Virus record (IMG/VR): IMGVR_UViG_2623620497_000001
Location: 1-5,745 of that record
Strand: one strand, 5' to 3'
From: a virus
Taxonomy: Duplodnaviria > Heunggongvirae > Uroviricota > Caudoviricetes
Length of the DNA stretch: 5,745 bases
Shown here: in pieces, positions 1 to 5,745 of the stretch
Layout: the number at the start of each line of letters is the position of its first letter
Numbering within the stretch: position 1 is the first letter of the stretch
The notes under the pieces: model-generated
The model's input: the letters and a program-made list of their open reading frames with translations, nothing else
What the model was told of the DNA's origin: nothing
Databases searched by the model: none
Made by a program: the position numbers and the translations under genes

Positions 1-266
1 ATCCCGTTTTTCCCCACCACCCGTTCTTCCAGCTTGTCAAATACACCAATGACCAGATCGTGGTTGTTATCAAGGTAACGGGCCTGCTCACGTAACGACA
101 CGGCCCCGTACTGGCTTAACTGGTCGGCAGTTCGGTTCTCCCGTCGGGCTTTGTGTGTCCGCGTCGTTTTTACGGCCTCATAAGCCTGAATCACCGCACG
201 GGAACGCAGCCTTGCCGCTTTCCATCCTGGTGAAAAAACGCCAATCACATCATCAAGAATTGCCAT
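1..266 (-). CDS. Phage portal protein (lambda-family), N-terminal 88 codons; gene continues past the window start
   Basis: Minus-strand ATG at 266-264 shares the A of the upstream gene's TGA stop (268-266). The frame stays open to position 1 (MAILDDVIGVFSPGWKAARLRSRAVIQAYEAVKTTRTHKARRENRTADQLSQYGAVSLREQARYLDNNHDLVIGVFDKLEERVVGKNG...). It occupies the slot after the terminase and gpW genes, which is where lambda-like phages place the portal gene. The call rests on gene order; the family was not recognised from sequence. Confidence 0.55.
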   Translation of the reverse strand, partial: MAILDDVIGVFSPGWKAARLRSRAVIQAYEAVKTTRTHKARRENRTADQLSQYGAVSLREQARYLDNNHDLVIGVFDKLEERVVGKNG

Positions 267-484
267 CAGAACCTCGCCAGCCGGTACCCGGGATGCCCCC
301 GTCGTCGTGTAATCAGAGCCGCAAGGCGGCGCTCCCACTCCTGCCGTCCCTGCCGGATCTCAGATAAGTTTTCCATGGTCATCTGCTGACCATTAAAAGT
401 GACGGATTTTCCGTCCAGCACCGCCATTTCAGCTTCCGTATAACGCTGAATCATGGCTTCAATATCATTCTGATTCATAACCAT
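266..484 (-). CDS. gpW-like head-tail joining / head completion protein
   Basis: 72-aa ORF immediately after the large terminase, overlapping its 3' end by 10 nt. Its size and the C-terminal RRRGHPGY motif resemble what I recall of lambda gpW (about 68 aa, C-terminal RRRGPAGF). Confidence 0.65.
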   Translation of the reverse strand: MVMNQNDIEAMIQRYTEAEMAVLDGKSVTFNGQQMTMENLSEIRQGRQEWERRLAALITRRRGHPGYRLARF

Positions 485-2577
485 CCTCCGGAAGTCAGCC
501 AGGGGTTAACATCGTCAGTTACTGTTTTCTTCCGTTTTTGTTTTTTAACAGGCGTGGATACCGGCTCCGGTGAGGGTGACGGTTCGGTACTGTCCGGGAC
601 ACACTCCAGCCAGGTTTCCCGGCTCGCCCACTCCGGTGCATCCGGCCAGCGGATCTTTTCGTATCCATGCAGAATGACCAGCGCCTCGGCATACACCATC
701 AGGTCAAAAGCTTCGTTGGCACCGCGACCCGGCTTACTCCATTTCCCGTCACTGCTCCGCTCTTCATACGTCAGTTCGTCGTAAAACCAGCTCCCCAGCC
801 AGTCAGGGAAATGCACATAGCCTGGACCTGGCGAGTCACGCCATAACGCGTTATTCACCCGGTCTTTCAGGGCATCCGTCTGAAGAAGCCAGAGCGGCAC
901 ATCACCTGCGGCCTGCGCCCGGCGGCCCGTTCGTCCGGTGTTATCAGGGAATGTACGGCTGATCAGTTTTGCGCGCCGGATGCTGTCGCCCTTAAACAGG
1001 TAAATACGTTTACCAAGGCCATCACGACGGCAACGACGCCAGAATTTATAGGCATTATCAGTGACCCCGTCTTCACCGCCGGAATCCACCGCCATTGCCA
1101 TCAGTCGCATTTGTTGAGAAGGATCGGAGGCCAGCGGCCAGCTTTTATGAAAAACATCCGTCAGCAGGACATCCCAGTCTTCCGGATAGCTGGCCGGATC
1201 AATTCGCTGGCTCTCCCCGTCGCTGTCACCGCGCAATGACTGCGTGATGTTGTAACGATCAATAATCCAGCGTTCGCCACGGCTGCCATAGCCCGTTACC
1301 TGAACCACAAAACGGCGATGACGTCCCGCCTGCACATCAACTGTCGCCACCAGGAAATTAACGCCATCCGGCACACTGCGGGAAGGAACTGGCTCTGCCC
1401 GCTGCTCAAGCAGTTCACTTTTTCGTTGCTCCATGCTGGCACGGGGAAGATAAGGTAATCCCCAGTCGGTATTGATAACCGTCTTGAGTGTTTCTTCACT
1501 TCCGGTTGTCTCGTATTCCTGTTCTGCAGTAAGCAGTTTGTAAACGAGTTGCGAGAGTGTCTGGTAAGCAGCTGCCGGACCCTCCATCCAGAATGACGCA
1601 ATACGTGAGCGTCGGGGATCACCATAACGACTGCCATCCGCATTGATGGATTCACCATCCCGCAACCAGACCCCACGTCCGTTCAGCTCACGTTTTTGTT
1701 CAGGCATAATCCGTCCTGAACAGGAAGGACACTGAATATAAGCCGCCTCACTTGCCAGCACGGGATCGGCAATATCACGGAAACCAGCAACCACATCGCC
1801 GCAGGGCTGAAAATACTCACCACAGTGTGGACAGGGCCAGTACCAGCGACGGCGATCGCCACGGTTATAGAGCGACAGTATCCCCGTGGTTGGTGGAGCC
1901 TCATGCGGTGAAGTCCGTCGCCATTTCACATCCTTCACATCCCTGCCGGGGGAACTCTCCACCAGCGTCATACCACTGGACATAAATGTGGTGGTACGTT
2001 TTGAGGCAAGAGAGAAGGCATCCCCCTCGCCATCAATATCTTCCGGAAAACGGTCATAATCCGTCAGCGCCACGCATTTATAATCTGATGAGGACATGAT
2101 ATTGACTGACGGCCAGCCGATTTTCAGGTAGTTGCCAGCAAGGAATGTTCTGTCATAAACGTTGTTGTCATTTTTGTTCGGACTCAGGCGACTGACCACT
2201 TCCGGGCTGACGCGAAACGTTCTGGCAAGTCGTTTTTTGGAGTGTTCGCGGGCTTTTTCCTCCGTCATCTGAATGATCAGCATATCAGCAGGATCGCAAA
2301 TCACATTGTAAATCACCCAGCCGTCAATCAGGCCGATAGTCTTGCCAGTTCGTGCCGGGCCAACAAATATCACTGCGTCGTATTCACGCGAGGCCAGGCA
2401 GTTCATCGGCTCAATAACATACGGTGCCACCAGCGGATCCCACGGGACTGAATTCCCGGCCCCCATGGGCACCCGCATATACTGAGCAACGGCATCAGCA
2501 ACCAGCATTCGTCTCGGTGCGCGAAGGATATAACCTGAATCGGTTCGTGCTGCCTTTGCGGTTTCCTGATTCAGCAT
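475..2577 (-). CDS. Terminase large subunit, lambda GpA family
   Basis: 700-aa ORF with a Walker A-like P-loop VGPARTGKT near the N-terminus and a CPHCGEYF motif resembling CPHCGEEQ of lambda gpA. Its ATG shares a base with the stop of the upstream small-subunit gene (TAATG at 2575-2579). Confidence 0.9.
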   Translation of the reverse strand: MLNQETAKAARTDSGYILRAPRRMLVADAVAQYMRVPMGAGNSVPWDPLVAPYVIEPMNCLASREYDAVIFVGPARTGKTIGLIDGWVIYNVICDPADMLIIQMTEEKAREHSKKRLARTFRVSPEVVSRLSPNKNDNNVYDRTFLAGNYLKIGWPSVNIMSSSDYKCVALTDYDRFPEDIDGEGDAFSLASKRTTTFMSSGMTLVESSPGRDVKDVKWRRTSPHEAPPTTGILSLYNRGDRRRWYWPCPHCGEYFQPCGDVVAGFRDIADPVLASEAAYIQCPSCSGRIMPEQKRELNGRGVWLRDGESINADGSRYGDPRRSRIASFWMEGPAAAYQTLSQLVYKLLTAEQEYETTGSEETLKTVINTDWGLPYLPRASMEQRKSELLEQRAEPVPSRSVPDGVNFLVATVDVQAGRHRRFVVQVTGYGSRGERWIIDRYNITQSLRGDSDGESQRIDPASYPEDWDVLLTDVFHKSWPLASDPSQQMRLMAMAVDSGGEDGVTDNAYKFWRRCRRDGLGKRIYLFKGDSIRRAKLISRTFPDNTGRTGRRAQAAGDVPLWLLQTDALKDRVNNALWRDSPGPGYVHFPDWLGSWFYDELTYEERSSDGKWSKPGRGANEAFDLMVYAEALVILHGYEKIRWPDAPEWASRETWLECVPDSTEPSPSPEPVSTPVKKQKRKKTVTDDVNPWLTSGGWL

Positions 2578-3068
2578 TACTCCTCCTGCTGTAATTCCTC
2601 CTCATCATCCGCACCTGCTTCGGTCACCCGCAGGGCTATCTGATCGCGCAGATCATCAATAATGGACTGAACACGGCTCACAGCGGCAGGCTGCAGGCCG
2701 CAGTCACGTTCCAGAATATCCGGTAATGTCTCCAGCACCTGCACGACCGCTTTTGCCCAGATGGCAAACTCCCGTCTGACATCACTGGCCGGAATGAGTT
2801 GTGCCGTTTCCTGTTCGAACTTAAGACGCTCACGTTCAGACTGATACCAGGCTTTGCGTTCATGTGGATCCATTTCGCCCTCAGCAACCGGCGGTGGTAA
2901 CCCCATAAATTCAGTCAGAATATCGGTCAACCGATATAGCTTGAGTTTGTCATGTCCACCAGCGGGACGAATGTTTTTCAGTCTTGCCACGACAGTCTGG
3001 CGGTGCAGACCAGATAAAGCCGCCAGTTGATTAATATTCAGCACCAAGTTTTTCAACTCATGATCCAT
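2577..3068 (-). CDS. Terminase small subunit, Nu1-like (N-terminal helix-turn-helix)
   Basis: 163-aa ORF directly upstream of and coupled to the large terminase. The N-terminus (LVLNINQLAALSGLHRQTVVARLKNI) has an HTH-like pattern as in lambda Nu1, and the C-terminus is acidic. A GGAGG Shine-Dalgarno lies 4 nt upstream of the ATG at 3068. Confidence 0.8.
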   Translation of the reverse strand: MDHELKNLVLNINQLAALSGLHRQTVVARLKNIRPAGGHDKLKLYRLTDILTEFMGLPPPVAEGEMDPHERKAWYQSERERLKFEQETAQLIPASDVRREFAIWAKAVVQVLETLPDILERDCGLQPAAVSRVQSIIDDLRDQIALRVTEAGADDEEELQQEE

Positions 3069-3123
3069 ATTTCCTCCGGAGAGCTTTAAACATGCATCGT
3101 GCGAACAACTTTAAGAAAACGCG

Positions 3124-3157
3124 TTCGATGTCGAACAAAAACCGCTCAATTCGACAT
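3124..3157. promoter_or_regulatory. Putative cosB-type terminase/IHF binding repeats
   Basis: ATGTCGAA (3128-3135) and TTCGACAT (3150-3157) form a perfect 8-bp inverted repeat with a 14-bp spacer. A third TTCGA half-site is at 3124-3128 and A-tracts follow. It lies between the putative cosN and the small terminase start, where lambda has its R elements and IHF site. Confidence 0.3.
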
Positions 3158-3230
3158 ACAAAAAACAAATAACCATTAATAATCAATAAGATGCAAAGAT
3201 GATGGTGGCCGATAAAAATGCAAAAACTAG

Positions 3231-3262
3231 CCTTTTTCCGCGACGCTCCCGCCCCGTGGTAG
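3231..3262 (-). other. Putative cosN (cohesive-end nicking site)
   Basis: Minus-strand 5'-CACGGGGCGGGAGCGTCGCGGAAAAAGG-3' resembles, from memory, the lambda cos junction ...ACG|GGGCGGCGACCTCGCGGG... . The presumed nick is about 186 nt upstream of the small terminase ATG, close to the roughly 190 nt I recall for lambda Nu1. Confidence 0.35.
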
Positions 3263-3362
3263 GCAACCCCGCCGGGAGGACCCATAAGAAAACACAGGTC
3301 CGACCGCCGTTTTGAATTCTCTTCTAAACGACTCTAGTTTGATTTGAGTATGCAATACGCGT

Positions 3363-3387
3363 AAAAAAGCCCCGCATAGGCGAGGCT
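3363..3387 (-). terminator. Rho-independent terminator downstream of the peptidase gene
   Basis: Minus-strand 5'-AGCCUCGC CUAU GCGGGGCU UUUUUU-3': an 8-bp GC-rich stem with one G-U wobble, a 4-nt loop and a run of six U. It starts 18 nt after the TAA stop at 3408-3406. Confidence 0.6.
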
Positions 3388-3405
3388 GGAATCAGACAGG
3401 GGGGA

Positions 3406-4308
3406 TTAAGACTGGATATTCCAAATCATTGCGTTACCGTTATGATTTTCAATGATTTTTGCCAGTGGTGCTCCACCAAAAGAATGCATGTAGCTGTGAT
3501 GTATAGTCAAAACCAAATCTTGAAGTACTTGATCACTTTCAAGTTCGGTAACATTCAACCCAATTTTCTGCGCCTTATCAAAATGAATATGACGCGAGTG
3601 GGTATAGGTTGTGTGATGGTTGTTTAACTCTGAACAAACATGTGTTGCTTTTGATTCTGCCTCAGGATCATTATCAAACATGCCTGTCATAAGCCAATGC
3701 TTAACAATCTCATTTGCCCATTTGATTGCTTTCTCACACTCGCCGATGATCGTCGGGTTTAGCTTTTGAAGAATGAACTGCCACATCTGAACAGCTGCGG
3801 GATTTTGAAAAATTTCCGTCTGCGCACGATTCCATTCTTCAATGATGGCATGGGTGGAGAAACCGTTGAACTGAGGATCAATTGGGCCAATGTTGGACTG
3901 TTTACCCATGATGATTTCATTGGCACAACATGCAAGCATAGTTCCGCAGGACATTGAAATCATAGGAACAATTGCTCTGATGTTAGTTCCAAACTTCGAC
4001 CTTAAGTAATGCCCGATTGATTCCAAAGCGGCAATATCACCACCTGGAGTATGAAGTATCAAATCCAACCCTTTTGATACATCTAAACCATTGATGGCTG
4101 TCATCAACCCGTTCTTATCATCATCAGTCATCTGAGTAAGATGGCGTACTTCTGCACCACCATGCTGTAACCACCCTGAGTAATATGTGATTACATTTCT
4201 TCCAGTATGATTCGAAAGTTGAGATAAGTATTTACGGCGAACCTCATCCATAGGACTTTTATGGGCGAGAGCCGTTATCTCGCCCAGTACGTCGCTCCAA
4301 TTAGGCAT
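3406..4308 (-). CDS. ClpP/crotonase-fold serine peptidase, SDH (serine dehydrogenase proteinase)-like
   Basis: 300-aa ORF. The segment DLILHTPGGDIAALESIGHYLRSKFGTNIRAIVPMISMSCGTMLACCANEIIMGK aligns by eye with the ClpP core (..[48 protein letters not shown]..), placing a Ser at the nucleophile position. The gene sits in an AT-rich block unlike the flanking phage genes. Its ATG (4308-4306) is 3 nt after the stop of the upstream small ORF and has no Shine-Dalgarno of its own, implying translational coupling. Confidence 0.7.
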   Translation of the reverse strand: MPNWSDVLGEITALAHKSPMDEVRRKYLSQLSNHTGRNVITYYSGWLQHGGAEVRHLTQMTDDDKNGLMTAINGLDVSKGLDLILHTPGGDIAALESIGHYLRSKFGTNIRAIVPMISMSCGTMLACCANEIIMGKQSNIGPIDPQFNGFSTHAIIEEWNRAQTEIFQNPAAVQMWQFILQKLNPTIIGECEKAIKWANEIVKHWLMTGMFDNDPEAESKATHVCSELNNHHTTYTHSRHIHFDKAQKIGLNVTELESDQVLQDLVLTIHHSYMHSFGGAPLAKIIENHNGNAMIWNIQS

Positions 4309-4311
4309 AAA

Positions 4312-4512
4312 TCAGTACGTGTAAAGTTGATGACTTGTAGTTTGGTTTTGCTTCGATTGTGTAGCGGTACCTTGTGAGTACCAAACACCTGTGTTTCCAC
4401 TCGTACTAGTTTGCTGTGCCATTACACGAGAAGCGAAGTTGTTAACAGTTTCACCAGTCAACATTTCTGCCGGTTTGATATTGTAAACATCGTAGAACTC
4501 AGCTGGGGTCAT
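4312..4512 (-). CDS. Small hypothetical protein (66 aa) with polar low-complexity C-terminal tail; first gene of the moron operon
   Basis: ATG at 4512-4510 is preceded by AAGGAG with an 8-nt spacer. The C-terminal half is rich in Q/T/S/N (QQTSTSGNTGVWYSQGTATQSKQNQTTSHQLYTY). It is tightly linked to the peptidase gene. No family was recognised. Confidence 0.55.
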   Translation of the reverse strand: MTPAEFYDVYNIKPAEMLTGETVNNFASRVMAQQTSTSGNTGVWYSQGTATQSKQNQTTSHQLYTY

Positions 4513-4520
4513 AATGATAG

Positions 4521-4600
4521 CTCCTTTTATAGCGCTACATATAGTGCCTGTGCTAAGGGGGACATACTATATGTGCCATTGTTGTCATATTTAAATGTGC
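4521..4600 (-). promoter_or_regulatory. Putative promoter/operator region of the moron operon
   Basis: AT-rich leader immediately upstream of the small ORF. A candidate -10 TATAGT (minus strand) has a weak -35-like TTAAAT 17 nt upstream. A perfect 9-bp inverted repeat ACATATAGT (4537-4545) / ACTATATGT (4566-4574) overlaps the region. Promoter assignment is tentative. Confidence 0.3.
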
Positions 4601-4621
4601 AAAAAGCCTCAAAAGAGGCTT
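4598..4621 (-). terminator. Hairpin with U-tract (weak intrinsic terminator or insulator) upstream of the moron
   Basis: Minus-strand 5'-AAGCCUC UUUU GAGGCUU UUUG-3': a 7-bp stem, 4-nt loop and five U counting the last two stem bases. The plus-strand version is followed by GAAAAAG, so it would act only on the minus strand. Confidence 0.35.
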
Positions 4622-4882
4622 GAAAAAGATGCAAAAATACTATCTATGACGTGACTATAGCTACTTACCCACAGTTTATACAAGCCAAAAATGCTAAATT
4701 CAGATAATCCTATTCGCTGAAAAACTACACAAAAGCTACGTTCATCTTGTCATTAGATAACGTCAGTAACTTTCACTAGATCTAAGCCATTGGTGAAAAA
4801 GCTAATTGCATGATGAAGCACTGTAATGTAGCAGTTGAGGTTGTTAAATGAGAATCACCCTAACAATGTCAACGGACATTAT

Positions 4883-5419
4883 TCATTTTCGTAACTTCTC
4901 AATCTCTCGTATACCCGCCAGGTTATTGTTGCCCTTCTCAATAACAGCCAGCAAAGGTTCAATCCAGAGGACGGCCTGGCAATACGTCATTGAGCTGGCG
5001 GCAGCGGTACTATCATCGGTTGCGTTAGTGTTCCCGGTATCGGGGTGCATTGCGCTGGCACGTAAACGGTACGCGTATTTGAGCAGCCCACCAGCGACAT
5101 CAGCAGGAACAGGCAGATCACAGGTCTTTTCACGTCGGAGAATCTCCCGGTATTCGATGACAGTTTTCTCAGTACCGGCATCGATCAGCGAGTTAAGGCG
5201 GTTGGCGTTCTCTGCTATCTGGTTAAACCGATTGAAGTTGAAAGCCTGTGTAGTTATCACCGTCGCCTGCAGCGCGTTATCATTACGTAATACCCGATTC
5301 TCACTCTGTTCTGTTTCAAGAGCTGAGCGGCTACGAACCAGTAATACGCTAAGCACTGCAATAATGATTACGACAGCCACCAGCAGAACCGCAACAATCG
5401 TAATTTTTCTGGGTTTCAT
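4883..5419 (-). CDS. Rz: Rz-like i-spanin (type II inner-membrane lysis protein)
   Basis: 178-aa ORF whose ATG shares a base with the endolysin TGA stop (TGATG at 5417-5421). It has an N-terminal transmembrane segment (ITIVAVLLVAVVIIIAVLSVLLV) followed by a charged periplasmic domain, and it contains an embedded out-of-frame lipoprotein ORF. Confidence 0.75.
   Translation of the reverse strand: MKPRKITIVAVLLVAVVIIIAVLSVLLVRSRSALETEQSENRVLRNDNALQATVITTQAFNFNRFNQIAENANRLNSLIDAGTEKTVIEYREILRREKTCDLPVPADVAGGLLKYAYRLRASAMHPDTGNTNATDDSTAAASSMTYCQAVLWIEPLLAVIEKGNNNLAGIREIEKLRK
4987..5181 (-). CDS. Rz1: Rz1-like o-spanin lipoprotein embedded in Rz in another frame; true start probably the internal GTG near 5133
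   Basis: The ORF lies entirely inside Rz in a different frame. It has a lipoprotein signal with lipobox (VKRPVICLFLLMSLVG|C) followed by a short proline-rich mature part (CSNTRTVYVPAQCTPIPGTLTQPMIVPLPPAQ), which is the classic Rz1 signature. Confidence 0.6.
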   Translation of the reverse strand: MPVLRKLSSNTGRFSDVKRPVICLFLLMSLVGCSNTRTVYVPAQCTPIPGTLTQPMIVPLPPAQ

Positions 5420-5745
5420 CAGAATACCCCCGGAACTGATACCGGAATGCCTGGGTTAAGCGGCCCGAGCCCATCACCAAGAACCTGAGGTTTTTCTGCC
5501 CACAGGCAAACTTCACGCTCAATCTCACGACGAGTCATCAGGCCTTTCCATTGCTTACCGCCAGCGTATATCCAGCGACGTAGCTGGTCACATGCGCCTT
5601 TGATATCGCCCTGGTTTATTTTGCGAAGAAGCGTCGATGTTCTGAAATTGCCAGCACCCACGTTGTAGACGAACGAGTAAAGAGCGCCGCGCGTTGTTTC
5701 CGGTATATCGACTTTGATGTACGGGTTAATTTGTCTGGCAACCGT
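5419..5745 (-). CDS. Phage endolysin (lysozyme, GH24 T4/P22-type), C-terminal part; gene continues past the window end
   Basis: The minus-strand frame is open from the window edge: [58 protein letters not shown]..., which matches what I recall of enterobacterial prophage lysozymes. It is immediately followed by Rz/Rz1. The Met at 5661 in the ORF track is an internal GTG, not the start. Confidence 0.8.

Follow-up and report, generated by a model that had tools for sequence, protein, structure and literature searches.

What does the perfect inverted repeat upstream of a small open reading frame in the late region of a lambdoid prophage do, and does it do so as DNA or as RNA? The stretch of DNA that we analysed (the window, 5,745 nucleotides, positions 1 to 5,745 of IMG/VR record IMGVR_UViG_2623620497_000001) is such a late region. 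All of its genes lie on the minus strand, in the order lysozyme, an Rz-like gene with a nested Rz1-like ORF, an AT-rich gap, a 66-aa ORF, an SDH protease gene, a terminator, a DUF1441 small terminase gene and the large terminase gene. A preliminary description of the sequence had noted the repeat in the leader of the 66-aa ORF and had proposed it to be the binding site of a repressor or activator. At the upstream end, the Rz-like ORF (4883-5419, minus strand) encodes 178 aa with an N-terminal transmembrane segment and is entered in RefSeq as hypothetical only; the out-of-frame ORF nested inside it (4987-5181, minus strand, 64 aa) resembles the spanin partner Rz1.

To define the unit to which the repeat belongs, the window was compared by blastn with 11 homologous loci in different phage backbones. 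The shared segment begins at 3318-3406 and ends at 4694-4773, with 74-94% identity, and its GC content is 0.36-0.44 versus 0.51-0.58 in the flanking terminase genes. The coordinates of this module and of the elements within it are collected in Table 1.

Table 1. Features of the module and of its leader (identities are mean pairwise values).
Feature	Coordinates	Strand	Basis and remarks
Mobile moron module	~3320..4730	-	Contains candidate promoter, leader, 66-aa ORF, SDH protease, terminator
P1 candidate -35, TTGTAT	4678..4683	-	TTGT invariant in 13 variants; identity 0.90; 18 nt upstream of TATAGT
P1 candidate -10, TATAGT	4654..4659	-	Identity 1.00
Terminator-like hairpin, AAGCCUC-UUUU-GAGGCUU then UUUGCA	4598..4621 (stem-loop 4621-4604)	-	RNAalifold, 7 pairs
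Full predicted stem-loop	4534..4577	-	9-bp core + C4575-G4535 + G4576-C4534, A4536 bulged; RNAalifold consensus
Sense-RNA 5' arm, ACAUAUAGU (second arm of the preliminary description)	4566..4574	-	Identity 0.90; contains a -10-like TATAGT, non-conserved
Loop/spacer	4546..4565	-	20 nt here, 19-21 nt in homologues; identity 0.39
Sense-RNA 3' arm, ACUAUAUGU (first arm of the preliminary description)	4537..4545	-	Identity 0.98
Shine-Dalgarno sequence of the 66-aa ORF, AAGGAG	4521..4526	-	8 nt before ATG, 7 nt after stem; read from sequence
Conserved small protein, 66 aa	4312..4512	-	ORF list; ATG 4512-4510
SDH-type ClpP-fold serine proteinase, 300 aa	3406..4308	-	Pfam PF01972, E=8.4e-23; phrog_11747
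Intrinsic terminator ending the cassette	3368..3387	-	Terminator scan: 8-bp stem, 6 GC pairs, T-run

The 66-aa protein is represented by 10 clusters at 76-98% identity, plus homologues at 52-53%, and matches phrog_25714 (E=3.9e-44), a PHROG of unknown function; it has no Pfam or NCBIfam match. Its AlphaFold model (pLDDT 59.7) shows two short helices with a disordered tail. In RefSeq, the E. coli copies of this ORF are mostly left unannotated, the feature under the match being either 'none' or the protease only. The protease itself is named SDH family Clp fold serine proteinase in RefSeq. Its ATG lies 3 nt past the stop codon of the 66-aa ORF and it has no Shine-Dalgarno sequence of its own, while that of the 66-aa ORF is strong, with an AGGAG that is invariant among the leader variants; translation of the 66-aa ORF appears to be coupled to that of the protease. 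Neither cassette protein matches the defence-system library PADLOC, and our search of the literature on the SDH/ClpP-like protease family found nothing relevant. Phages of Shewanella (Mu-like), Porphyromonas and Gordonia encode proteases that are 37-46% identical to the SDH-type protease. The protease family is thus far wider than its 66-aa partner, which was found only in Enterobacteriaceae-like contexts.

Homologous cassettes were sought at the level of DNA and of protein. In 42 of 5426 complete E. coli genomes we found a copy at least 99% identical to that of the window, and a 77.5% variant is present in 7 others; the 42 copies are uninformative for comparison because they are at least 99% identical. 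Megablast of the window against a phage collection gave no match, and a protein-based scan of species-representative genomes gave no homologue. A DNA pattern that combines the upstream promoter-like element (P1) with the hairpin recovered one true homologue, the cassette of Mangrovibacter yixingensis (L082); its other matches, in Corynebacterium and others, are unrelated to the cassette. The resulting leader set comprises 13 distinct variants, taken from the contigs of the protein clusters, from viral and metagenome contigs and from M. yixingensis, and the identities that we quote for leader segments are mean pairwise values over nine distinct close lineages. The most diverged cassettes are L082 and L079, from a metagenome contig, in which the small protein is 52-53% identical.

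The module occurs with three terminase types, at several insertion points and in different host genera. It is found at the Rz/terminase junction with DUF1441- or Nu1-type terminases, upstream of a metallopeptidase and a DUF2280 gene (L007, Phytobacter), and between a Q-like gene and a DNA methylase gene (L082 3443-4552, M. yixingensis). The varied insertion sites suggest an accessory or conflict-gene hotspot, and in L009 and L010 an Acb2/Tad1-like gene lies just upstream of the cassette. At another locus (L001 1-4278, E. coli UK_Dog_Liverpool) the large terminase gene beside the cassette is truncated and abuts a block encoding a tyrosine integrase, an HTH regulator, a BRO-N protein and an Icd-like protein, which resembles a satellite or integrative element inserted in the prophage terminase gene.

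The presence of the cassette and its position vary, it has a promoter-like element and a terminator of its own, and its GC content is deviant; by these sequence features it is a classical moron. Lambdoid phage morons are promoter-gene-terminator modules, such as bor and lom of lambda and the morons of HK97, and the moron concept reportedly goes back to Juhala et al. in 2000. The cassette resembles them in being autonomous, in its own promoter-like element and flanking terminator, in its lower GC content and in its position between conserved late genes at variable sites. It differs from them in its cargo, since the 66-aa protein and the SDH/ClpP-like protease are uncharacterised, and in its unusually elaborate leader, in which a terminator-like hairpin is followed by a second conserved hairpin.

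This second hairpin corresponds to the inverted repeat. Its arms, ACATATAGT (4537-4545) and ACTATATGT (4566-4574), are 100% reverse-complementary over 9 bp and 20 nt apart, with GCC directly after each of them, which confirms the preliminary description to the base, and the repeat sits 25-62 nt upstream of the ATG of the 66-aa ORF. That description had also pointed to a GTGCC after each arm. Both copies are present in the window (4544-4548 and 4573-4577), but of the second one, which on the minus strand reads GGCAC and closes the spacer on its 3' side, homologues keep only CAC or TAC; this copy is not conserved and is coincidental.

From the single sequence the repeat is not significant, and its reality rests on conservation. 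The window holds 4 perfect 9-bp inverted repeats with spacers of 3-40 nt versus a mean of 0.85 in dinucleotide shuffles; at least one such repeat arises in 48% of the window shuffles, and in 6% of shuffles of the 370-nt intergenic gap. These counts, together with the occurrence of TATAGT also in P1, would be in line with a chance palindrome or with a functionless relic of duplicated -10-like TATAGT elements. Comparison of the homologues makes either origin extremely improbable. The repeat is present in every homologous cassette that we retrieved, neither absent nor scrambled in any of them, its 5' and 3' arms are 0.90 and 0.98 identical beside a spacer at 0.39, and in the most diverged cassettes double substitutions rebuild perfect complementarity. 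The linkers before and after the repeat are 0.54 and 0.65 identical.

Inspection of the substitutions revealed which property of the arms is kept. In L079 and L082 the arms (ATATGTAGT/ACTACATAT) have four bases changed, which make up two compensatory pairs (C-G to U-A and A-U to G-C). The result is again a perfect 9-bp stem, which reaches 11 bp with a C-G and a U-G pair below, around a 19-nt spacer. L008 has the same A-U to G-C change as well, and a U·U mismatch in addition. In L011 and in the pair L022/L026 one A of the 5' arm is replaced by G, which yields a G·U pair on the minus-strand RNA but would yield C·A on the other strand. Every single-sided change is in the 5' arm: three are A to G and one is A to U. 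In the hand-checked alignment 97.7% of the pair cells are standard, and pairing falls to 4-11% when the partner is slid by one column; both sides are changed at 2 of the 11 pairs (3 cells), and 3 cells are G·U. The covariation score is 0.135 versus 0.104 in shuffles and was reached by 1 of 500 of these, a significance that is overstated by the relatedness of the sequences. Covariation is thin: it concerns two positions and probably only 2-3 independent events among related sequences.

In our interpretation, the repeat probably encodes an RNA stem-loop that forms in the 5' untranslated leader of the two-gene moron operon. As predicted from the alignment, the stem would have 11 bp and a loop of ~20 nt and would end just before the Shine-Dalgarno sequence of the 66-aa ORF; we infer that it folds in vivo. 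RNAalifold recovered the repeat helix unconstrained, along with the upstream terminator helix, and when the entire leader of the window or of L082 is folded, the stem-loop is seen in both the MFE and the centroid structure. Fold z-scores of the single hairpin range from -0.4 to -4.2, the window and L007 being unremarkable at -0.4. The ~20-nt loop is large for a functional hairpin, and this counts against the stem-loop reading. The loop does not pair internally more than shuffled spacers do (Fisher p=0.24), and on the same spacer-only shuffles, which show no overall excess, we rejected an extended inner helix that can be drawn in the spacers of L002, L003 and L008.

We also compared the hairpin with known classes of RNA element. 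Rfam 15 gave no match at the gathering threshold, and at E up to 10 only chance-level matches. With intrinsic terminators it shares a hairpin on the sense strand; unlike them its stem is AU-rich and no T-run, and hence no U-tract, follows it (the downstream sequence is GCGCUAUAAAAGGAG), and a terminator identity was rejected. A canonical RNase III site comprises ~20 bp, about two helical turns, of largely continuous double-stranded RNA. The conserved stem of 11 bp is short of this length, with an extension only in L002, L003 and L008, and this identity was likewise discarded. An ATG-initiated ORF that runs across the 5' arm (4588-4553) was dismissed as a leader peptide, as it is without a Shine-Dalgarno sequence and its ATG is missing in L004, L007, L009 and L011.

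An RNA stem-loop implies a transcript that contains it. The repeat is oriented with late-operon transcription and lies downstream of the conserved P1, whose consensus TTGTnT-18-TATAGT (4683-4654) is found ~85 nt upstream of the repeat and within the module boundary. GCTATAGT is invariant in 13 of 13 variants, the 53%-identity cassettes included, and a P1-based pattern returned exactly the 19 viral contigs that were also found by the small-ORF and repeat searches. This conservation suggests that P1 is an active promoter. Transcription is predicted to start at ~4647, the A of a conserved CATAGA; counted from there, the repeat would occupy about +74 to +111 and the full stem-loop ~+72 to +114.

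Three further observations concern the surroundings of P1. The P1 spacer, TGTGGnTAAnTnGC (4660-4677, minus strand), is 0.81 identical, which is unusual for a sigma70 spacer. In L079 and L082 a 9-bp inverted repeat, TGTGGATAA/TTATCCACA, flanks the P1 -10 (L082 4683-4721, minus strand; L079 258-296) and is a better operator candidate than the repeat studied here. RNAalifold also pairs the predicted 5' end, CAUAG (4644-4648), with the start-codon region, YUAUG (4510-4514), occluding the AUG; its support consists of G-C/G-U variation only, and the pairing is not kept in L079.

The preliminary description had instead placed the repeat on the -10 element of a promoter, as an operator. On this account the half-sites would bind a dimeric or tetrameric host or prophage factor that represses or activates a secondary promoter, P2 (TTTAAA-18-TATAGT, 4595-4566, minus strand), a sigma70-like sequence that matches the consensus at 9 of 12 and whose -10 falls within one arm. 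The perfect dyad would be explained, as would the conservation of the arm sequence and not of pairing alone. The promoter is less constant than the dyad: TATAGT with a -35-like hexamer 18 nt upstream is present in most variants, but the arm reads TGTTGT in L008 and TGTAGT in L011/L078 and in L079/L082, with loss of the essential A at -11, the P2 -35 is poorly kept, and the promoter-like P1 85 nt upstream is invariant. Since this A is lost while complementarity is kept, what selection maintains appears to be pairing or symmetry, not a -10. The overlap with a -10 thus holds for the window, where TATAGT lies inside the arm, and fails in the four lineages that do not conserve the hexamer.

The geometry of the repeat can be read in a similar manner. 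Spacing stays at 19-21 nt with a free spacer sequence, as an operator might require, but the spacer varies between 19, 20 and 21 nt about as often as other, unconstrained linkers do, so that its near-fixed length is no evidence for a protein dimer, and the centre-to-centre distance of 29 bp does not correspond to whole helical turns. The identical change of both arms in L079/L082 is what a co-evolving dimeric DNA-binding protein would leave, whereas all single-arm changes but one are wobble-compatible on the sense strand.

A cognate regulator or further sites would also be expected for an operator. No DNA-binding domain was detected in either cassette protein, the protease having the SDH domain alone, and we concur with the preliminary description that the cassette has no regulator gene; a role of the 66-aa protein as an autoregulator has no support, since no domain matched it and its model, two helices with a disordered tail, is of low confidence. 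With at most 1 mismatch, the half-site occurs 4 times in a complete 41-kb prophage, both arms included, versus 5.8 expected. Outside the cassette the dyad is found in ~22 viral-contig contexts with unrelated flanks, which by our own estimate is about the chance number. Since the module has moved among unrelated phage backbones, insertion points and host genera, it is less likely to depend on any one prophage repressor. Compared by eye with the consensus sequences of sigma54 (TGGCAC-N5-TTGCA), LexA, CRP and Fur, the repeat matched none of them.

Palindromic repressor operators that overlap promoters are exemplified by lambda OR/OL and by LexA boxes. The repeat has in common with these its dyad symmetry, its conserved arms and, in most variants, the overlap with a -10-like hexamer. 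It differs from them in being a single site with a 20-bp spacer, in the lack of a conserved overlap with the core promoter, and in having neither a cognate regulator nor extra copies in the prophage. Taken together, we consider a DNA operator unlikely. What stands of the earlier proposal is a conserved, selected cis-element in a moron leader; its placement as an operator on a -10 is unsupported.

The RNA stem-loop is not the only conserved hairpin of the leader. Between P1 and the repeat, ~25 nt downstream of the predicted start and at about +27 to +44, lies the terminator-like hairpin, in which, as in the repeat, the stem is kept and the loop is freer: each arm is 0.97 identical and the loop 0.79. 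It has compensatory changes of its own, A-U to G-C in L011 and GAGCCUC/GGGGCUC in L079/L082, and could be an attenuator. Acting together, the two hairpins might then control the read-through of P1 transcripts into the operon, whether as a regulated attenuator, as an antitermination leader or as an RNA switch that binds a protein. The whole-leader fold (z=-2.48) and the constant company of P1, hairpin, repeat and ORF, which always occur together, fit such a device, but we found no alternative structure in which the repeat arms pair with the terminator stem as an anti-terminator, and no leader peptide. The linker between the hairpins is also poorly conserved at 0.54, the U-tract is weak in L011 and in L079/L082, and Rfam has no match. 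We judge a gated leader of this kind to be quite unlikely.

Returning to the stem-loop in the leader of the operon, a course of expression can be proposed. In a lysogen, transcription would start at the sigma70-like P1 (TTGTAT-18-TATAGT), and in lytic growth transcripts would arrive from the Q-modified phage late operon. The transcripts would then pass the promoter-proximal terminator-like hairpin (4621-4604), and those that read through would form the 11-bp stem with its sequence-free ~20-nt loop, 7 nt before the Shine-Dalgarno sequence. The 66-aa ORF would be translated, coupled to the SDH/ClpP-like protease. For the hairpin itself the options are that it stabilises the message, defines a processed 5' end or tunes initiation at the small ORF, and it could act alone or as the binding or cleavage site of an RNA-binding factor such as RNase III. 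As a tentative suggestion, its function may be post-transcriptional, the hairpin giving a protected or processed 5' end or setting the translation rate of the small ORF.

Stem-loops in 5' untranslated regions are known from phages and from E. coli, among them the RNase III-sensitive hairpin of the lambda N leader, the R-site hairpins of T7 and the 5' stabiliser of ompA. The predicted stem-loop is like these in its conserved stem just ahead of a ribosome-binding site, in its compensatory and wobble changes and in its free loop sequence. It is unlike them in that its 11-bp stem, with a ~20-nt loop, is shorter than canonical RNase III substrates, in that the predicted P1 transcript would begin some distance before it, and in that it has no Rfam family. 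A stronger proposal would treat P1, the terminator-like hairpin and the repeat stem-loop as parts of one cis-regulatory RNA leader of a kind not described before, an attenuator or a protein- or RNA-binding switch, which silences the module in the lysogen and releases it on a specific signal such as superinfection or induction, with the repeat as the sensor or recognition hairpin of a new prophage conflict system. We regard this as very unlikely.

The repeat belongs to a common type of element; the finding helps annotation and comes as no surprise. If the stem-loop reading is true, the moron would bring its own regulation with it, at the post-transcriptional level, and would not receive it from a repressor of the host or of a prophage; this would explain how the cassette still works after moves among unrelated lambdoid backbones, insertion points and host genera. 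The analysis also provides a map for an unstudied cargo, running from the promoter through the attenuator-like hairpin and the stem-loop to the 66-aa gene, the coupled protease and the terminator, for a cargo that is located in prophage accessory-gene hotspots and once beside an Acb2/Tad1-like gene.
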